Of a DNA stretch of 24,706 nucleotides, positions 15,046 to 22,563 are shown piece by piece. Both the position numbers and the translations under genes were made by a program. The notes under the pieces were generated by a model. The model was not told where the DNA came from and ran no database searches. It saw only the letters and a program-made list of their open reading frames with translations. The stretch spans positions 1-24,706 of IMG/VR virus record IMGVR_UViG_3300045988_008368. One strand, given 5' to 3'. Every line of letters starts with the position of its first letter. Positions within the stretch are counted from its first letter, which is position 1. The stretch comes from a virus.

Positions 15046-17412
15046 TTGACTGCATTGGTAAAGGATGATGGTGTTGATATTACATCTAAGTATTCAATTA
15101 TTTGGTACAAAGACGATGTGCAAATATCAACAAATCAAACTATCACAATTAGTGCATCAGACCTATCAGAAAAGGCTGTATATCGATTTAAAGCAATGAG
15201 TGGTGAAATACTTAAAGCAAGTGCAGAAGTCACTGTAATGCGATTGCAAGATGGTCAGAATGGAACAAGTGCATATGTACATATTGCCTATGCCAACAGT
15301 TCAGATGGTCGTGTTGATTTCAGTTTGACAGATTCAAATCGTAAATTTATTGGTCAGTATTCTGATAGTAAGCAATATGGTTCAGAAGACCCAACTAAAT
15401 ACCGATGGAGTGCAATTAAGGGCGAAGATGGTCAGTCATTTGTGAGTGCCGAAGAGCAGTTCTATTATTCGACTTCTCAAACCGAATTAATTGGTGGTGA
15501 GTGGTTTGTTGGTAATGTGGTTTATCAAAGTGATAAATTTCTTTGGAAAAGATGGAAATGTACGTATGCTAATCCTAGTGAAATCAAGTATACGAAAGCT
15601 ATTTTTGACAACACTTGGAATGAAATTGATGCGAAAATCAGTGAGATTCACACTCAAGTGTCTCAAGCAAATGTGCAATCAAAAGAAGCAGTTGAAAAAG
15701 CAACACAAGCTCAGACAGATGCAAGTAAAGCAAATGAATTGGCAAATACCGCTAACACTCAATCAAGCGAGGCTAAGCAACTAGCACAAGATGCGAATAC
15801 TAGCACTGGTAAAGCACAAGAACAGATTGATGCGATTAAAGGAGATATCACTGATTCAAAGCAACAGATTCAAGATGCAGTTGATAAGGCAAACACAAAC
15901 GCAAATGAAATCGGTACAATAAAAGAAACGTACGCTACAAAAGTTGATTTAACTACTGAATCAAAAACAATTCATGCAGATGTTACAACAGAAATTGAAA
16001 AGAAAGTCGGTGAATTATCGACTACTGTATCAGAAACTTATGCTTCTAAGAGTGATTTAACAAGCATTGAAGGTAGTTTAAATACCAAGATTAAACAAAA
16101 TGCCGATTCAATCACAACTCAAGCAAGTTCAATTGAAAAGTTGCAATCAGATACAACTAAAGCTCAGAAAGATATTATTGATGCAACAAAGAAAGCAACG
16201 GATGCTCAAGCTCAAGCGGATAAAGCGTTAGGTAATGCTCAAAGTGCTCAAACTCTAGCAGATGAAGCAAAGAAAAAAGCAGATAGTGCTCAAACTAACT
16301 TAGACAATGCTAATAAAGAATTGGCAGATGCAAAAGCTAATCTAGAATCAGTGACTGGTAGAGTTGATGCGACTGAGAGTGAAATTACAAAAGCTCAAAC
16401 ACGTTTAACAAACGCAGAATCTGCAGTACAGAAAGCTCAGTCTGATGCAACTAAGGCTCAAGGCAACGCAACTACGGCAATCAATAATGCAAAGGCAGCT
16501 CAAGGAGCGGCGGATGATGCAAAGCAGAAAGCAGAACAAGCTCAGAAAGATTTAGCAGATTTAACGAATAAAGTAACTTCAAATACAACGGCAATTGAGC
16601 AGAATGCAAAAGCTATTAAATTACAAGCTACTTCGGTAACTGAAATAAAAGGGGTTGCCAATACTGCAAACAGTAATGCATCAAGCGCATTGAATAAAGC
16701 TAATAGCTTAACTGATAGAGCCGATAAAGGTGAGTTTGATGGACGAGGTGTTGCAAGTACAACTGTTGAATATCAAGCATCTACATCTGGAACTATTGTG
16801 CCTACTGGAACGTGGTCTGCTACGATTCCTACTGTTGCTCAAGGTTCATATTTATGGACTAAGACTACAACTAACTATACAAGCGGAAATCCTACAATTG
16901 GATATTCTGTAGCTCGTATGGGTGTAAACGGTGCTAAGGGTGACAAAGGCGAAATCGGACAAACAGGACCTCAAGGGCCACAAGGAGTTAAGGGCGAGAC
17001 AGGTTCACAGGGTCCTCAAGGACTAAAAGGAGATACTGGTCCTAAAGGTGCTGATGGTAAATCACCAACTGTGTCTGTTAGCAAAAGTGGAAACACTACA
17101 ACTATTACTGTAAATAACCCTGATGGTACAAAAACAAGTCAAACTGTAAAAGATGGAACTAATGGAACTCCTGGTAAAGATGGAGCTACAGGAAAAACTA
17201 CATATTTTCATGTAAAGTATTCAAATGATGGTGGTAAAACATTTACTTCTAATTCAGGAGAGACTGTAGGGGATTATATTGGTACTTATACAGATTTTGT
17301 TGAGGCCGACTCTAATTCTGTTTCAAGTTATACATGGGCCAAAATAAAAGGAGCTCAAGGAGATAGAGGAGCCACTGGTGCCACAGGAGAACGTGGACCG
17401 CAAGGACCTTAG
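15046..17412 (+). CDS. Tail fibre body (continuation of Tal): coiled-coil rod, collagen-like repeats; terminated by an in-frame TAG
   Basis: 788 aa from a TTG with no RBS, and the frame is open back to 14974. It contains a long Ala/Gln/Lys/Thr-rich coiled coil (about 15650..16720), two of the three copies of a fibre module (YY.S.S.T...G.W......KYLW.R; the third copy is in 17416..18159), and Gly-X-Y repeats. The stop TAG 17410..17412 occupies a Y position in a Gly-X-Y repeat. Confidence 0.8.
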   Translation: MTALVKDDGVDITSKYSIIWYKDDVQISTNQTITISASDLSEKAVYRFKAMSGEILKASAEVTVMRLQDGQNGTSAYVHIAYANSSDGRVDFSLTDSNRKFIGQYSDSKQYGSEDPTKYRWSAIKGEDGQSFVSAEEQFYYSTSQTELIGGEWFVGNVVYQSDKFLWKRWKCTYANPSEIKYTKAIFDNTWNEIDAKISEIHTQVSQANVQSKEAVEKATQAQTDASKANELANTANTQSSEAKQLAQDANTSTGKAQEQIDAIKGDITDSKQQIQDAVDKANTNANEIGTIKETYATKVDLTTESKTIHADVTTEIEKKVGELSTTVSETYASKSDLTSIEGSLNTKIKQNADSITTQASSIEKLQSDTTKAQKDIIDATKKATDAQAQADKALGNAQSAQTLADEAKKKADSAQTNLDNANKELADAKANLESVTGRVDATESEITKAQTRLTNAESAVQKAQSDATKAQGNATTAINNAKAAQGAADDAKQKAEQAQKDLADLTNKVTSNTTAIEQNAKAIKLQATSVTEIKGVANTANSNASSALNKANSLTDRADKGEFDGRGVASTTVEYQASTSGTIVPTGTWSATIPTVAQGSYLWTKTTTNYTSGNPTIGYSVARMGVNGAKGDKGEIGQTGPQGPQGVKGETGSQGPQGLKGDTGPKGADGKSPTVSVSKSGNTTTITVNNPDGTKTSQTVKDGTNGTPGKDGATGKTTYFHVKYSNDGGKTFTSNSGETVGDYIGTYTDFVEADSNSVSSYTWAKIKGAQGDRGATGATGERGPQGP
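16921..17064 (+). repeat. Collagen-like Gly-X-Y repeat 1 (16 triplets)
   Basis: GVN GAK GDK GEI GQT GPQ GPQ GVK GET GSQ GPQ GLK GDT GPK GAD GKS, read directly from the sequence. Confidence 0.9.
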
Positions 17413-17475
17413 GGATTGAAAGGTGATAAAGGAGCAACAGGGGCTCAAGGCCCTACTGGTGCGACTGGTACTGGT
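17350..17475 (+). repeat. Collagen-like Gly-X-Y repeat 2 (14 triplets) containing an in-frame TAG
   Basis: GAQ GDR GAT GAT GER GPQ GP* GLK GDK GAT GAQ GPT GAT GTG. The Gly-X-Y register is preserved across TAG 17410..17412. Confidence 0.9.
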
Positions 17476-18159
17476 GTAGCTAGTATGACACAACAGTATT
17501 ACATGAGCGACTCGAAAACTACTCAAACCGGTGGCTCATGGGTTGAATCAATGCCTACGTGGTCAAATGGTAAATATTTATGGACTAGGTATAAAGTGGT
17601 TTATAAGAATCCTGCTTCAACAGTTTATACCACTCCTGTATGTAATAGTTCATGGGAAGCAGTCAATGAAGAACGTACAGAACGACAATCTGCCATTGAG
17701 ACAAAAGCGAATGAAATTACTGCGAAAGTTAGCGAAATTTACGTATCAAATTCGGCTTTGAATCATTATAAAGAAGAAGTATCTACTCAGTTTAGCCAAA
17801 CTAAGAGCGATTTTACGTGGTCAATTAATCGAAGCGTGACCGATGCTAAAAATGAAATGAATGGTCAAATCAGCAGTGTGAATGGTAGATTGGATGGTTT
17901 AAAACAAACCACAGACAACGTAAACAGTTATATGTCTTTTGATAACGATGCATTGACTTTAGGTAAATCAGACAGTGCATTTAAAACTAAAATCACAAAC
18001 CAAGAATGGTCGATTCAAAAGAATGGTGCAAAGGTAACATATATAAACGACCAAACAATGTACATTACAGATGGTCAATTTACGCAGTCTTTAAAAGTAG
18101 GTGCATTTGGTTTTGTACCAAGAGCTAATGGCTCATTGGACTTCAAGAAAGTAGGGTGA
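17416..18159 (+). CDS. C-terminal part of the split tail fibre (downstream of the in-frame TAG)
   Basis: The track start is a TTG one codon after the TAG, with no RBS. The sequence continues the collagen repeat and then a third copy of the fibre module (YYMSDSKTTQTGGSWVESMPTWSNGKYLWTRYKVVY). It ends GAFGFVPRANGSLDFKKVG, typical of fibre C-termini of this class. Confidence 0.75.
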   Translation: MKGDKGATGAQGPTGATGTGVASMTQQYYMSDSKTTQTGGSWVESMPTWSNGKYLWTRYKVVYKNPASTVYTTPVCNSSWEAVNEERTERQSAIETKANEITAKVSEIYVSNSALNHYKEEVSTQFSQTKSDFTWSINRSVTDAKNEMNGQISSVNGRLDGLKQTTDNVNSYMSFDNDALTLGKSDSAFKTKITNQEWSIQKNGAKVTYINDQTMYITDGQFTQSLKVGAFGFVPRANGSLDFKKVG

Positions 18160-18163
18160 TTAA

Positions 18164-20053
18164 ATGGCAGAATTTAGTGGTGGAATACAAATTGGTAGTG
18201 GTCAGTGGGATAAATACTCGTTAATATTACGAATCAATGAAATATCTTATTCTGTTGAAAACAACACATCATATGTAGAGTGGTGGGTTGGTATTCGATC
18301 TAATACGCAGTACCATACACACAATGGAATTCCAGAAACATTTAAAGTATCCGTGAATGGTACTCAAGTGTTAAACCAAAGCTTTACACCTAATGTGCCG
18401 GTAAATACGCTTGTTGGTGTAAAAAGTGGAACTGTAACTATTTCACATGATGCAGATGGTTCAAAAACAATTTCGGCAAGTGCATCTTTCAGCGGAAGTA
18501 ACTCTGGATATTATGCACCTATTACTGGTTCTTGCAGTGGTACTGTTAAATTGACAACTATTCCAAGAGCTTCAAGTATATCTATTGATAGCCCTAGCAT
18601 TGAATGTGGTAAAACTATAAATATTAATGGCTCGAGTGCTTCAAAAAACTTTACACATAAAATCTACGCAACATGGAATGGTAAAACAAGTGAATTAACA
18701 ACGATAAGTGGGACATTAACACCCACTTTTTCTTATACGATTCCTACCGCATGGGAAAAGGACTTACCTAATTCGATAAGCGGAATTGCTACATTTACAT
18801 TAGAAACATTCAGTGGTTCAACTTCGGTTGGCTCAAAATCAGTAAATGCAACAATTAAAGTAAGAAGTGGAGTCGTTCCTAGTGTTGGAACGGTCTCGAT
18901 ATCTGATACAAATTCAATCTGCGTAGGAATAGGTCAACATGTTCAAAGTCAATCAAGATTAAAGTTCTCAATTGCTACAAGTGGTAGTCAAGGCTCAACT
19001 GTTACATCTGTATCAACTAAATTTGAAGGACAAACATATAATGATAGTTCATTTACTACAGGTACTGTACAGGGAAGTGGCAAGTTGTCGTACACAATCA
19101 CAGTTACAGATTCACGTGGTCGAACTTCATCTAAGAGTGGTTCGGTCACTGTATCTGCATACAGTCCCCCAAGCTTAACGAATGTAACTGCAAAACGTGC
19201 TAACTCAAGTTATGCGATTGATGAGGCAAGTGGTACATATGCTTTATTACACTTCAAAGTTGGATTTACTAGTTTAAGCAATAAGAATGTAACATCATTC
19301 TATATTCAATATCGAGCAAGTGGTGCTAGTTCATGGACGAAAATAAATTCGTGGGATAACAACTACACGCTTGAACAAGATTACAAAGCAGGTAATTTAT
19401 TCACATCTGCAACAAGTTCCTATGAGGTTGCGTTCGGCGTTAAGGATAAGTTCATGAGTGATTATTCATGGCAAATATTTACTGTAGCTCCTGCTTACTC
19501 ATTGATAAACTTTGGTAAAGATGGAAGATCATTGACGCTCTTTGGTCAAGACGCTAATCAAAAAGATACATTAACTGTACTAGGTGATATTGTAGCTCCT
19601 ATTTTCTTAAATAAGATATTCCCAGTTGGCGCAGTCTATATCACATACGATAAAAAGAACCCTGGAACATTCCTAGGCGGGACATGGGAACAGTTTGGAC
19701 AAGGTAGAACATTAGTCGGTGAAGGCACTGGAAATGATGGTAGTACAAGTATGTCTTTTACTACTGATTCGAGCGGTGGTGAATATAAGCACAAACTGCT
19801 AGAAACTGAAATGCCGAAACATCATCATAGTGTGAGATTGATGGTTAAAGGATATGCTGGTTGGGAGGAACGAACTATTGACAGTTTTGGAGTAATGATT
19901 GATAGAAGCACAAAAAACTATGTCACTCCAAATGAAAAGGTTAATGCCACAGATGCTTCTGCGTTTGTTTATACTGGTTGGGCAGGAGATAATGTGCATC
20001 ATAATAACGTTCAACCCTACATAACCACGTTCTTTTGGCGAAGAACGCAATGA
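18164..20053 (+). CDS. Receptor-binding tail fibre / baseplate protein: DUF859-like N-terminal region plus C-terminal phage tail-collar domain (currently expressed tip = cassette 0)
   Basis: 629 aa. The N-terminus MAEFSGGIQIGSGQWDKYSLILRINEISYSVENNTSYVEWWV resembles the siphovirus DUF859-type structural proteins. The C-terminus IFPVGAVYITYDKKNPGTFLGGTWEQFGQGRTLVGEG ... GGEYKHKLLETEMPKHHH ... HHNNVQPYITTFFWRR matches the phage tail collar domain pattern (PF07484-like). Confidence 0.8.
   Translation: MAEFSGGIQIGSGQWDKYSLILRINEISYSVENNTSYVEWWVGIRSNTQYHTHNGIPETFKVSVNGTQVLNQSFTPNVPVNTLVGVKSGTVTISHDADGSKTISASASFSGSNSGYYAPITGSCSGTVKLTTIPRASSISIDSPSIECGKTININGSSASKNFTHKIYATWNGKTSELTTISGTLTPTFSYTIPTAWEKDLPNSISGIATFTLETFSGSTSVGSKSVNATIKVRSGVVPSVGTVSISDTNSICVGIGQHVQSQSRLKFSIATSGSQGSTVTSVSTKFEGQTYNDSSFTTGTVQGSGKLSYTITVTDSRGRTSSKSGSVTVSAYSPPSLTNVTAKRANSSYAIDEASGTYALLHFKVGFTSLSNKNVTSFYIQYRASGASSWTKINSWDNNYTLEQDYKAGNLFTSATSSYEVAFGVKDKFMSDYSWQIFTVAPAYSLINFGKDGRSLTLFGQDANQKDTLTVLGDIVAPIFLNKIFPVGAVYITYDKKNPGTFLGGTWEQFGQGRTLVGEGTGNDGSTSMSFTTDSSGGEYKHKLLETEMPKHHHSVRLMVKGYAGWEERTIDSFGVMIDRSTKNYVTPNEKVNATDASAFVYTGWAGDNVHHNNVQPYITTFFWRRTQ
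19749..19785 (+). repeat. Crossover site S0 (core GTATGTCTTTTAC 19749..19761) inside the expressed fibre gene
   Basis: GTATGTCTTTTACTACTGATTCGAGCGGTGGTGAATA. The reverse complement is found exactly at 20842..20878. The ATG of the core is codon 530 (Met) of the fibre. Confidence 0.85.
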
Positions 20054-20302
20054 TTATTTAATTCGTTTCCAAAAGTAAGTTACAATGGATGGCTGTAAAT
20101 TATTATGTGCTTGGTTTCCTCCTGTGTTTGTTGTATTACTCATATAGCCACCATTAAACCATGAGTTATTTGATGCGGATTGAATATTTCCTTTTCCGTC
20201 AATCCAAGCGCAGTCATTAAATTTATGCGCATGATTAGGCATTTCTTGTATTGTTAGTTGGTGCTTGTATTCTCCGTATGTTTTTCCGGATGTAAATGAC
20301 AT
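20054..20302 (-). CDS. Silent alternative fibre-tip cassette A (82 aa, collar-domain C-terminal half)
   Basis: MSFTSGKTYGEYKHQLTIQEMPNHAH ... GGNQAHNNLQPSIVTYFWKRIK is paralogous to the last 100 aa of the fibre. There is no Shine-Dalgarno sequence upstream. Its stop codon abuts the fibre stop codon. Confidence 0.75.
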   Translation of the reverse strand: MSFTSGKTYGEYKHQLTIQEMPNHAHKFNDCAWIDGKGNIQSASNNSWFNGGYMSNTTNTGGNQAHNNLQPSIVTYFWKRIK

Positions 20303-20304
20303 AC
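20292..20304 (-). repeat. Crossover site SA (core GTATGTCATTTAC on minus strand) at the start of cassette A
   Basis: The forward strand reads GTAAATGACATAC. The ATG of cassette A is 20302..20300. Confidence 0.75.
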
Positions 20305-20322
20305 TTTTAATCGGTTATATAG

Positions 20323-20335
20323 GTATGTCATTTAC
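20323..20335 (+). repeat. Crossover site SB (core GTATGTCATTTAC) at the start of cassette B
   Basis: It is head-to-head with SA, separated by 18 nt (20305..20322). The ATG of cassette B is at 20325. Confidence 0.75.
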
Positions 20336-20597
20336 AACCAATTCTGAAGGTGGTGAATACTATCATACGTTATCATATTCTGAAATGCCTGCTCACGCAC
20401 ACGAAGTTGGTATATGGGGTACGTCTGGCGTTTTAACAACTACTCCGTGGGAATTTATGGCCATTAATGGTTCGCATCATTCTGATGGTCAAAGTCACAA
20501 TGTAAATAGTATTCATACAAATGGATCTGGTGGCAATATTCCACACAATAACGTGCAACCATATTTAGTTGTTTTCTTTTGGCGAATGGTAAAATAG
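20325..20597 (+). CDS. Silent alternative fibre-tip cassette B (90 aa)
   Basis: MSFTTNSEGGEYYHTLSYSEMPAHAH ... GGNIPHNNVQPYLVVFFWRMVK. The track ORF (20265..) adds 20 spurious residues by reading antisense through the start of cassette A. There is no RBS. Confidence 0.75.
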   Translation: MSFTTNSEGGEYYHTLSYSEMPAHAHEVGIWGTSGVLTTTPWEFMAINGSHHSDGQSHNVNSIHTNGSGGNIPHNNVQPYLVVFFWRMVK

Positions 20598-20876
20598 CTA
20601 CTTGATACGTCTCCAAAAGTAAGTTACCACGTAAGGTTGTACATTATCGTGTGGTTTGTTTCCGCCTGTTGGCCATGTTTGACCGTACCAATAATAATTA
20701 GTTCTATTAGCACGTTCAGTGGCTCTCGTAAAAGGTACATCACTATATGGATTACCATATAATGCAGTGGTTACATCAGTTTGTTGGTCTAAGATCCAAT
20801 GCGTATGGCTCGGTAGCTCTTCACGTGTAAGTTTATGATAGTATTCACCACCGCTCGAATCAGTAGTAAAAGACAT
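20598..20876 (-). CDS. Silent alternative fibre-tip cassette C (92 aa)
   Basis: MSFTTDSSGGEYYHKLTREELPSHTH ... GGNKPHDNVQPYVVTYFWRRIK. The first 11.7 codons are nucleotide-identical to the expressed tip. Its stop codon abuts the cassette B stop. There is no RBS. Confidence 0.75.
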   Translation of the reverse strand: MSFTTDSSGGEYYHKLTREELPSHTHWILDQQTDVTTALYGNPYSDVPFTRATERANRTNYYWYGQTWPTGGNKPHDNVQPYVVTYFWRRIK

Positions 20877-20878
20877 AC
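20842..20878 (-). repeat. Crossover site SC (core GTATGTCTTTTAC on minus strand, 20866..20878) at the start of cassette C
   Basis: Perfect 37-nt reverse complement of S0. It lies 2 nt from the stop codon of the recombinase gene. Confidence 0.85.
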
Positions 20879-20880
20879 AT

Positions 20881-21774
20881 TTACTTGTAGTAATCGCAAA
20901 GTAATTCTACACATTTTCTTTTTAATTCCATTTGAGGATGAACGTAGATATTCATAGTGATCGAAACATTGGAATGGCCAAGTAATTCACTAAGTGATTT
21001 ATAATCACAACCACATTCAATGCATCTTGTTGCAAATGTGTGTCTTAATGCATGGAATTTGAGGTGTGGAAGTTCAAGGTCTTTAAGTAGTCGATTGTAG
21101 TAAAGCCTGTATTTATTAGGCTCTATCGGTTTATCTCGATTCGTTAATACATAGTTATCTGCATCACCTTGAAGCAATATAGCATAATGCATTATCCAAG
21201 CGTTAAGAGGAATCATACGAGTGCTAGAACGTGATTTAGGCGGTGTTATTGAAAGATGACTACCGTCTTCTTTTGTGTATGTACGTATCATGGTTTTATC
21301 TATTTTTAACAATTTGGTTTGAATGTTTATATCAGACCATTTCAAAGCGCATAGTTCACCTATGCGTATTCCAGTGTGGATGCATAACAGGATTCCAAAG
21401 TTTTTGTAATTAATCTCAGATTGGAGGTGATTAATCAATGAGATTTGATTTTCTTTTTCAAAAATTTCTACCGCCGTAGGAGGATGGTATGGAAGTTGAA
21501 TATCGATTTTAAATGGAAGTGTGAACTTCAGAATTTGAATAATGTCTTTGGCATATTTAAAAGAAATGCCACCTTTTCCATCTTTACGACCATTTTCAAG
21601 TTTTTGAAGAATAAACTCTTGCAGAATATCGTTATTCAATTCTTCAATTTTATATGTGCCAAGTGTTGGCAATACGTGATTATGAATCACATTACAATAA
21701 TTTGTGTAAGTGCTGTATTTTAGATAGATTTTCTTTTCTTTTAACCAAGAATGTAATTTGTCAGAATATAGCAT
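20881..21774 (-). CDS. Tyrosine site-specific recombinase (small XerC/D- or Rci-like); candidate invertase of the fibre-tip segment
   Basis: 297 aa with a GAGGT RBS. The catalytic pattern is present: HTGIRIGELCAL (Arg I), HALRHTFATR (H-x-x-R), LLGHSNVSITMNIYVH (His/Tyr). It is the only long minus-strand gene in an otherwise + strand late region, and it sits 4 nt from cassette C rather than in a lysogeny module. Confidence 0.85.
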   Translation of the reverse strand: MLYSDKLHSWLKEKKIYLKYSTYTNYCNVIHNHVLPTLGTYKIEELNNDILQEFILQKLENGRKDGKGGISFKYAKDIIQILKFTLPFKIDIQLPYHPPTAVEIFEKENQISLINHLQSEINYKNFGILLCIHTGIRIGELCALKWSDINIQTKLLKIDKTMIRTYTKEDGSHLSITPPKSRSSTRMIPLNAWIMHYAILLQGDADNYVLTNRDKPIEPNKYRLYYNRLLKDLELPHLKFHALRHTFATRCIECGCDYKSLSELLGHSNVSITMNIYVHPQMELKRKCVELLCDYYK

Positions 21775-21817
21775 TTTTGTTTACCTCGCTTTTTTTATAT
21801 TAATAGGAGGATTTTAA

Positions 21818-22066
21818 ATGGTTAAAACACATGAAATCAATTTAAATACTAAATTATGGAATTTTTTCCAAGAACACGATTTTATTATTCTTGATTTGAC
21901 TGATGAGCAAATCAATGAACAAGATTATGTGTTATTTAAACAAGTATCGTTAGACGAAGGAAAAGAAATGGATACTGGTTTATTTAGAATGACACAGATT
22001 CGCAGCATCACTACTAACGATGGATTCAAAGAAGGCTATGTGATGTTAAATGTAACTAAATTATAG
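21818..22066 (+). CDS. Small protein, DUF3850 / ASCH(PUA)-like
   Basis: RBS AGGAGG. KTHEINLNTKLWNFF ... DYVLFKQ ... TGLFRMTQIRSI ... GFKEGYVMLNV resembles the HELK ... GD.L.L.E ... TGR ... I ... GL.EGYV.L pattern of DUF3850. Confidence 0.45.
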   Translation: MVKTHEINLNTKLWNFFQEHDFIILDLTDEQINEQDYVLFKQVSLDEGKEMDTGLFRMTQIRSITTNDGFKEGYVMLNVTKL

Positions 22067-22076
22067 GAGGAAAGTT

Positions 22077-22325
22077 ATGGAGTTAAATGAAACAGTAGAG
22101 TTGATGAACTCTGCAGATTACAAAGACAGATTCAAAGGCGAGTATTTTCAAGTAAAGATTCGTCACGACAAATTGAAAGCTATGTGCGAAAAATGGGATG
22201 AAGGAAAGTTGAATTTCAAACCGACTTGTCCAAGAGAAATCTATGATCTTCAATTAGATGCCATGAAAAGATATATGGACATCCTTGTTATTCGTACAAA
22301 GATTGAAAATGTTGAGTTGATCTAG
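22077..22325 (+). CDS. Small conserved helical phage protein (function unknown)
   Basis: RBS AGGAGG. 82 aa. DRFKGEYFQVKIRHDKLKAMCEKWDEGKLNFKPTCPREIYDLQLDAMKRYMDIL resembles a widespread small phage protein family that I cannot name with certainty. Confidence 0.6.
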   Translation: MELNETVELMNSADYKDRFKGEYFQVKIRHDKLKAMCEKWDEGKLNFKPTCPREIYDLQLDAMKRYMDILVIRTKIENVELI

Positions 22326-22338
22326 GAGGTAACTGTAT

Positions 22339-22563
22339 ATGAATTTTGCATCTGCATTTATATCTATGACACGTGGCCACAAGGTGGCACGTAGTCATTG
22401 GACTGGATATTGGCATATCGTAGATGGAATCATCATGATCCACACAAAAGATGGTGTTGATTTCAAATTAACAGATTCAGACGATATCGTGTATACAATC
22501 AGCAATTGTGCATGTGATGACTGGCACATTGTGGATAATTATGGAGTTAGTAAGGAGAGATAG
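22339..22563 (+). CDS. DUF2829-family protein (Tad2-like, candidate anti-Thoeris signal sponge)
   Basis: RBS AGGAGG. The N-terminus MNFASAFISMTRGHKVARSHWTG and the C-terminus DDWHIVD match the two hallmark blocks of DUF2829 (M.F.eA...l..G.kv.R..W.g ... DW.iv). 74 aa is a typical size. Confidence 0.55.
   Translation: MNFASAFISMTRGHKVARSHWTGYWHIVDGIIMIHTKDGVDFKLTDSDDIVYTISNCACDDWHIVDNYGVSKER

Follow-up and report, generated by a model that had tools for sequence, protein, structure and literature searches.

Introduction

Receptor-binding proteins of phages can be switched by invertases of the tyrosine recombinase family, as described in 2018 for the Rin shufflon of Bifidobacterium breve and Bifidobacterium longum prophages, which was called the first phage-encoded tyrosine-family invertase (Mavrich et al, 2018, PMC6109161). 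Its hosts are Gram-positive actinobacteria, its tail genes are of siphovirus (TP901-1-like) type, and 11-bp rix sites (TTCCCTAACCC) lie upstream of each cassette, with all five fusions seen in reads (PMC6109161). A shufflon of the Rin kind was later reported in Eggerthella lenta prophages (PMC8778435), and BV01-like phages of Phocaeicola vulgatus carry a recombinase-flanked tail-fibre shufflon with a 10-bp motif (TGGGAGAACT), in which three cassettes give six isoforms through different stop positions and all configurations are found in reads (2026 preprint, PMC13596623). A systematic survey likewise places tail-fibre genes among the targets of programmed inversion. Here, we analyze a 24,706-nt stretch of viral DNA (IMG/VR record IMGVR_UViG_3300045988_008368, positions 1 to 24,706; hereafter the window), in which a tail-fibre gene is followed by three silent versions of its 3′ end and by a tyrosine recombinase gene. 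We consider it highly probable (roughly 0.9) that this locus is a phage-encoded shufflon switching the receptor-binding tip of the fibre.

In architecture and logic, the window locus appears analogous to Rin. Both combine a constant N-terminal receptor-binding region with several promoterless C-terminal cassettes and carry a short asymmetric repeat at the cassette starts and in the expressed gene, a repeat that is rare elsewhere in the window (four copies versus 0.07 expected). In both, an armless tyrosine recombinase adjoins the cassettes while a separate canonical integrase is encoded elsewhere (known here from relatives), and inversions with breakpoints at the repeats are found among prophages of Gram-positive gut hosts; for Rin, inversions are also seen in populations. 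In contrast, the host belongs to the Bacillota (Erysipelotrichaceae) here and to the Actinomycetota there, the target is a DUF859 protein with a T4 gp10-type tip rather than a lactococcal phage 1358/TP901-1-like protein or an H-type lectin, and the site GTATGTCWTTTAC, which codes for MSFT, is unrelated in sequence to the 11-bp rix site. Moreover, the joint lies inside a folded domain here. The BV01-like shufflon shares with the window locus several cassettes over the distal end of a tail-fibre gene, a flanking recombinase, and a temperate gut phage as carrier, but its host is a member of the Bacteroidota and its 10-bp motif is a different one.

Other described systems resemble the locus in single aspects. 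The serine invertases Gin (Mu), Cin (P1), Min (p15B), and Pin (e14) use a Fis-dependent enhancer and a 2-bp crossover, with Min performing multiple inversions, and their invertible segment also bears a tail-fibre assembly gene. They too invert the 3′ end of a tail-fibre gene, with host-range switching as the known outcome, whereas the window locus has a PF00589 tyrosine recombinase and no chaperone gene. In the R64/IncI shufflon, the tyrosine recombinase Rci acts on sfx sites and swaps the C-termini of the PilV adhesin by multiple inversions; in sfx, the 7-bp centre is asymmetric and the right arm is conserved, the left arm only poorly so, and Rci is reported to avoid deletions. The window locus likewise combines a tyrosine recombinase with multiple inversions, and the further likeness is one of site design only (an asymmetric spacer of 7 bp between a conserved right and a variable left arm). 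Its target is a DUF859/Gp10_C phage tail protein encoded in a structural operon instead of a plasmid-borne conjugative pilus adhesin of Enterobacteria, its recombinase has no Rci-type family match in NCBIfam, and two-cassette derivatives are common. Small armless tyrosine recombinases acting on short inverted sites are also found in the Tsr-type invertases of Bacteroidales and in type I restriction–modification hsdS shufflons, whose targets are cellular outer-membrane protein, polysaccharide utilization locus, or specificity-subunit genes and not a virion protein.

A sequence-only reading of the window knew of no characterized tyrosine-recombinase fibre-tip shufflon in a Gram-positive siphophage; Rin and the E. 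lenta system are such precedents. The concept was already published in 2018, and the present locus opens no new category. It appears to be the first example from the Erysipelotrichaceae (Bacillota), with a T4 gp10-type tip: our literature search, outside of which most subscription journals lay, returned no description of such a system in phages of Holdemanella or other Erysipelotrichaceae.

Results

Fibre gene and tip cassettes

The tail-fibre/receptor-binding protein gene (18164..20053, plus strand; 629 aa) is preceded by the ribosome-binding site (RBS) AGGGTGA, and its product matches PF05895 at residues 17–454 and PF21939 (Gp10_C) at residues 482–628. The constant part, residues 1–529 (18164..19750, plus strand), comprises the DUF859 region and the first ~50 residues of Gp10_C, while the 100-aa tip S0 (19751..20053, plus strand), delimited by open reading frame (ORF), profile match, and tip alignment, is the one now fused and expressed. 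Beyond it lie the silent cassettes A (20054..20302, minus strand; 82 aa), B (20325..20597, plus strand; 90 aa), and C (20598..20876, minus strand; 92 aa). S0 and A as well as B and C abut tail-to-tail with 0 nt in between, and the start of C is 4 nt away from the stop codon of the recombinase gene. ORF analysis confirms the gene borders and zero-gap junctions read from the letters alone. Over cassette B, the mechanical ORF can be extended upstream to a TTG at 20265.

The fibre and the cassettes A, B, and C score 80.6, 40.0, 34.5, and 35.2 bits with Gp10_C, all above the gathering cut-off of 27 bits. Each cassette covers just model positions ~54–139 of 139 (55–139 in A), and the four tips are 41–44% identical, in agreement with the claim that the cassettes are paralogous to only the last 100 aa of the fibre. 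The family itself had been named differently: instead of Collar (PF07484), the Pfam search gives Gp10_C. In line with this assignment, the alignment with the C-terminal domain of T4 gp10 (PDB 2FKK; 3.4e-6) runs over the joint and includes the terminal NIQPYITVYRWIR strand. Identity among the tips clusters in the blocks MSFT..GEY.H.L..E.P.H.H and H.N.QP...FW. Both ends are conserved, whereas the middles are unrelated and differ in sequence and length, as had been described. The shared motifs proposed earlier hold as an overall pattern but not to the letter, since A has YGEY and not GGEY, C has HDN and not HNN, and B ends with FWRM.

None of the three cassettes has a Shine–Dalgarno sequence, again as first read, and such sequences are present for the recombinase (GAGG) and the fibre (AGGGTGA). 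A scan of 19400–22400 finds nine promoter-like sites versus 13.9 expected and no terminators. Across 2113 fibre homologues, the constant part is conserved and the tips are variable. In a set of 120 of these homologues, fusions to the constant region exist for all four window tips, at 97–100% identity.

Recombination sites

The 13-nt core GTATGTCWTTTAC, searched with at most one mismatch, occurs four times in the window, at 19749 (+), 20292 (−), 20323 (+), and 20866 (−), while shuffling predicts 0.07 occurrences and none of 100 shuffles reached four. All four are perfect copies that sit exactly at the three cassette starts and the fibre joint. Their alternating strands bear out the view that one and the same core marks every cassette start and that s0 is inverted relative to the cores of A and C. 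Site s0 (19743..19761, core 19749..19761, plus strand), GTACAA-GTATGTC-TTTTAC, lies inside the expressed gene and encodes ..S-M-S-F-T in frame. Sites sA (20292..20310, minus strand; core 20292..20304, degenerate left arm 20305..20310) and sB (20317..20335, plus strand; left arm 20317..20322, core 20323..20335), both defined by site alignment, face each other head-to-head across an 18-nt spacer (20305..20322) that contains both left arms. Site sC (20866..20884, core 20866..20878, minus strand), reading GTAAAT-GTATGTC-TTTTAC on the minus strand, is located beside the recombinase stop codon. The inverted repeats formed in this way measure 56 nt with 89% identity for s0/sC, 18 nt with two mismatches for s0/sA, 50 nt for sB/sC, and 22 nt for sA/sB. 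As the core encodes M-S-F-T in frame, every exchange yields a seamless fibre.

Across the related loci, we surveyed 146 sites (122 unique, 68 internal). GTATGTC-N-TTTAC is essentially invariant, and head-to-head cores are spaced by 17–18 nt in 12 of 12 cases. At internal sites, position −2 is A in 68/68, position −6 is G in 48/68, and position −5 is always a pyrimidine; hence, the left flank is a degenerate mirror of the right arm. The 19-bp site thus reads as GYWWAN / GTATGTC / NTTTAC. Its 7-bp centre is asymmetric, and of the two arms the left is degenerate and the right invariant, which is a standard core-type layout for tyrosine recombinases. Where the neighbouring constant-region and recombinase sequences are 99.8–100% identical, position −1 follows the left flank and position +8 the cassette, which bounds the exchange to the 7-mer.

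Within a locus, all sites share one central 7-mer in 59 of 60 multi-site loci (54 with GTATGTC, 5 with GTATGAC), the single exception being a spurious match at a fibre start codon. In L051, L054, L064, L066, and L068, all sites read GTATGAC, so the centre has changed in concert within each locus and the cassettes consequently begin with MTFT. A requirement for identity of the overlap predicts such concerted change, and homogenization by the recombination itself would look alike.

Natural inverted variants

Inversion was assessed from natural variants among metagenomic contigs and genome loci. The exact recombinase protein is found on at least 22 metagenomic contigs, and contigs with a recombinase of 99–100% protein identity (exact in L001–L010) show arrangements other than that of the window, S0/A/B/C, which recurs in L002 and L026. 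In L145, the order is recombinase, S0, A, B, and then C fused to the constant region, exactly the predicted product of s0 × sC. Flipping the L002 segment bounded by the outer cores in silico makes this contig colinear with L145 over 4792 nt at 99.85% identity without gaps, whereas native L002 aligns in three segments, of which the middle one (1144 nt) is reversed. The predicted s0 × sA product, with A on the constant region and S0 silent, is present in L011, L148, and L150. Thus, both direct fusions anticipated in the sequence-only reading exist in nature. The same holds for B, which was expected to become accessible after a first inversion and is fused to the constant region in L006, L007, L012, L013, L027, and L030. 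Cassette A is fused in P0027, P0087, L011, L148, and L150, and C in L001, L003–L005, L145, L146, and L151. Conversely, the 303 nt of S0 occur at 100% identity as a silent stand-alone cassette in L011 and L145–L154.

In L003 and L004, C is fused and B adjoins the recombinase, and the last 451 nt of the constant region as well as the recombinase gene are 100% identical to the window; in L012 and L013, B is fused and followed by C, with the same end of the constant region, again 100% identical. L012 and L003 are one inversion apart. All natural junctions of the constant region with A, B, or C break at the s0 core, and the breakpoints of the natural variants always fall in the core, where they had been placed from the sequence. 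In L012 (5144–6036) and L013 (4566–5458), both Logan assemblies, the recombinase gene contains a 1-nt indel and is called as 252 aa, which could be a locked variant or an assembly error.

Contig ends also coincide with the core. L015 and L018 stop precisely at the 7-mer GTATGTC, which in L015 is that of the site next to the recombinase; L016 stops within the core nearest the recombinase, and L038 within a core as well. At the start of L046, the 3′ end of the recombinase gene is repeated as an inverted copy of 103 nt that runs precisely to the end of GTATGTC, so that one assembly has the same recombinase-side half-site joined to tip types T2 and T5. Further, the silent S0 gene is mostly located on contigs of <2 kb. 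Together, these breaks, the chimeric end, and the short S0 contigs are indirect evidence for mixed arrangements within samples.

Possible exchange of cassette modules

The S0-A module (window 19751–20302; L011:4586–5141; L146–L149) is 99.5–100% identical between loci that differ in their other cassettes and share just ~87% identity in the constant region. Towards the spacer, the near-identity of the module collapses exactly at the GACATAC core, beside a non-homologous spacer. The pattern suggests that cassette modules have been exchanged between phage lineages at the recombination sites. Moreover, the segment bounded by the direct sites s0 and sB is precisely what distinguishes two- from four-cassette forms, the flanks of which are 100% (451 nt of the constant region) and 99.8–100% (recombinase) identical. 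This suggests site-specific deletion, insertion, and module exchange between phages, although an assembler artefact would look alike.

In L147 (1810–4126) and L151 (2427–4126), a cassette pair is present twice, S0-A in one contig and C-B in the other. Either the arrays genuinely contain six to eight cassettes including repeats, or the assembler traced a path through a population of mixed arrangements; the duplications are compatible with exchange.

The locus across related phages

The recombinase query retrieves 52 IMG/VR loci and five closely related genome loci (61–93% identical). Hosts are Holdemanella sp., Floccifex sp., Erysipelotrichaceae metagenome-assembled genomes (MAGs), and the isolate 'Firmicutes bacterium M10-2' (mouse). 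The ~60 related loci carry 2–8 cassettes each and >60 full-length tip types. Comparison of related prophages, which had been put forward as a check, reveals the same cassette sets in permuted order and orientation: T12/T3 in L029 and L031, T1/T3/T4/T2/T5 in L036, L037, L043, L048, and L049, and T7/T8/T20 in L061, L062, and L071.

The common tip types T1, T2, T3, T5, and T28 (L014, L036–L059) retain the QPY..FWRR end, but their HxH and HNN motifs are missing and their lengths go down to 66–73 aa. More than one sub-architecture is therefore open to the swapped part.

Recombinase and integrase

The 297-aa recombinase (20881..21774, minus strand; RBS GAGG) matches PF14659 at residues 7–55 and PF00589 at residues 112–282. 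Together with the RKHRHY motif residues R137, K180, H241, R244, H267, and Y277 (Tyr codon 20944..20946), the latter match substantiates the earlier classification as a tyrosine recombinase. By Pfam, the protein consists of a SAM-like core-binding domain and the catalytic domain, and an arm-binding domain is absent; it aligns with positions 170–446 of the 611 positions of phrog_1. No NCBIfam model reaches its cut-off (best XerA-like, 73 bits), and the best PDB match is the Tn1549 integrase core. In all of the >70 related loci, the recombinase adjoins the cassettes. It lies between fibre and holin, with six genes from there to the prophage end, and the host flanks past the lysin differ among contigs.

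Inside the window, no second recombinase is found, and the 10 kb upstream (L078) contain replication genes only and no integrase. Most related loci stop at a CI-like repressor; the canonical integrase was reached via L123 and then via shufflon-bearing contigs. On a single contig, L040 carries a 359-aa integrase, lysin and holin, a 297-aa shufflon recombinase, two cassettes, and the fibre. Its integrase is 93% identical to one with Arm-DNA-bind_4, SAM_3, and Phage_integrase domains and shares 27% identity with the shufflon recombinase over the catalytic domain. Contig 092409 is a second shufflon contig with its own integrase. As the related phages encode separate integrases (359–365 aa) with an arm-binding domain, the recombinase of the window is not the integrase. 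It also differs from λ-type integrases in that it has no arm-binding domain, is not at the prophage end, and has relatives in which a separate Arm-DNA-bind_4 integrase is encoded.

Outside the Erysipelotrichaceae, the nearest relatives of the recombinase are found in Bacteroidales (33–40% identity). In the Bacteroidales MAG RUG720 (L022:5555–8105), a 38%-identical recombinase lies between 750-nt inverted repeats (78% complementary), which are two OmpA-like porin genes, each beside a ~1000-aa gene; this looks like a chromosomal invertible surface-protein locus. Another Bacteroidales relative is encoded beside SusD and glycoside hydrolase genes. OmpA-like and SusD/glycoside hydrolase surroundings are usual for Bacteroides tyrosine invertases. 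None of the Bacteroidales loci L020–L023 contains the BV01 motif TGGGAGAACT. In the human faecal phage contig MT835594.1 (L155), the gene of a 36%-identical recombinase is placed between two copies, at 1576–1604 and 2968–2996, of a near-perfect palindrome (TCGCAGAGTA..TACTCTGCGA). We did not retain this contig as a shufflon: the palindromes flank the recombinase gene only, and no cassette array is evident.

Gene setting

The window is the late region of a siphovirus-type prophage from a gut bacterium of Holdemanella type. Its late genes comprise terminase, SPP1-type portal, tape measure, Dit, Tal-like, and collagen-like tail proteins, fibre, holin, and amidase, with the fibre gene as the last tail gene. 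An in-frame TAG (17410–17412) divides the collagen-like tail gene into two ORFs in the same frame, 15046..17412 and 17416..18159. In L003, L004, and L005, which are 99.5% identical locally, this position is CAG (Gln), and one undivided gene of >1300 aa results. The TAG could be a nonsense mutation in a decaying prophage or a sequencing error, while TAG-to-Gln recoding is less likely. Between recombinase and holin (21818–22325) lie two 82-aa genes that are both kept beside the shufflon in close relatives; one matches Pfam PF21825 'Sequestin' and phrog_774, the other no family. A megablast search of the locus against GenBank phages gives no match, and tblastn finds only ~30%-identical DUF859 tail proteins of Streptococcus prophages without shufflon context.

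Discussion

The natural variants fit a multi-inversion system that can place any of four tips on one constant shaft, as the sequence-only reading had proposed: the s0 × sC product (L145), the s0 × sA product (L011, L148, and L150), and the B-fused contigs all exist. In such a system, a tip would be made only when fused in frame with the constant region (18164..19750), and A, B, and C would serve as silent stores. The armless tyrosine recombinase would pair two oppositely oriented 19-bp sites and exchange strands within the 7-bp centre, whereby the DNA between the paired sites is inverted. The first strands of the T4 gp10-type C-terminal domain would come from the constant part, and its variable middle together with the conserved last strand (NxQPY..FWRR) from the cassette. 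Starting from the arrangement in the window, s0 × sC would fuse C and s0 × sA would fuse A, whereas B would require two steps because sB is a direct repeat of s0. Recombination between direct repeats would delete cassettes and may also add them. From sequence comparison, we infer that the adjacent recombinase is the catalyst, that the tip sets the host range, and where exactly the strands are cleaved.

Several observations weigh against an active tip-switching shufflon in the window. Contig breaks and chimeric ends can also reflect co-existing strains, and both the two-cassette contigs and those with duplicated pairs (L147, L151) could be assembler paths through mixed populations. In an AlphaFold2 model of the full fibre (50-sequence alignment; mean predicted local distance difference test score, pLDDT, 62.6), pLDDT is <50 across residues 443–543 and 616–629, stretches that span the joint and part of the tip. 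In addition, the window prophage may be defective, given the TAG in the collagen-like tail gene upstream. The last point leads to the idea that a formerly active shufflon is now frozen, with S0/A/B/C fixed in the lineage of a decaying prophage, which we regard as unlikely. It would account for this TAG at 17410, where close relatives have CAG, for the damaged recombinases of relatives (the 1-nt indel in L012 and L013, truncated matches in L069, L072, L075, and L076), and for the recurrence of the window arrangement in L002 and L026. However, the recombinase ORF is intact, none of its six catalytic motif residues is missing, the GAGG RBS is present, the four cores are perfect, and L145 is a whole-segment inversion of L002, a near-identical locus (99.85%) with the window arrangement. 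Moreover, a contig carrying the exact window fibre ends near 20350, at sA/sB.

General homologous recombination or gene conversion between the conserved cassette ends, leaving the recombinase with another role, is very improbable. RecA-type exchange is conceivable, as the cassette 5′ ends share up to 37–56 nt (S0 versus C) and the 3′ ends are conserved, but breakpoints lie in the 13-nt core even where little else is shared (18 nt with two mismatches for s0/sA) and identity blocks stop exactly at GTATGTC beside non-homologous spacers. Neither the uniformity of the 7-mer within a locus and its concerted change between loci nor the constant adjacency of the recombinase, in relatives down to 61% identity and in several host genera, fits such a process. 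Each cassette starts with ATG and is annotated as a gene by gene callers, and the cassettes might accordingly be independently translated small proteins, for example adaptor or chaperone-like tips. This is scarcely credible given that they have no RBS, that the scan shows no promoter-like excess and no terminators, that each covers Gp10_C ~54–139 only and hence an incomplete fold, that the ATG is part of the in-frame core, and that in-frame fusion of every cassette to the constant region is found in nature. It is extremely improbable that the recombinase is the prophage integrase, acting on an attP elsewhere, and that the fragments are decayed duplicates in fixed order, a case that the sequence-only reading had itself raised. 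PHROGs and Pfam do label the protein 'integrase', and it is the only recombinase in the window; on the other hand, it has no arm-binding domain, is encoded between fibre and holin, six genes from the prophage end, and belongs to a group whose shufflon-bearing members encode a separate canonical integrase of 359–365 aa on the same contig, and the cassette order is not fixed but varies. A diversity-generating retroelement was also considered and dropped, as there is no reverse transcriptase and the variation is cassette-wise and not adenine-directed.

Beyond inversion, we tentatively propose that the sites and the recombinase may also act as an integron-like cassette-exchange platform, with excision, deletion, re-insertion, and trading of cassettes between ~87%-identical lineages, although we lean against this extension. 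If true, the phages would share a pool of >60 swap-compatible tips, and the occurrence of loci with two to eight cassettes would be explained.

A fibre-tip shufflon at this locus would also have practical uses. The >60 tips that splice at one in-frame joint (MSFT) inside a gp10-type domain constitute a natural library, and the 297-aa recombinase with its ~19-bp site could serve host-range engineering or as an inversion tool in low-GC Gram-positive bacteria. To our knowledge, almost no phages of the Erysipelotrichaceae have been characterized. The locus would extend receptor-binding shufflons with tyrosine invertases from phages of Actinomycetota and Bacteroidota to prophages of the Erysipelotrichaceae (Holdemanella, Floccifex, and M10-2). 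It would explain why such phage genomes break at the cassette locus in metagenome assemblies, and a single reference arrangement of these phages would under-report their host range.

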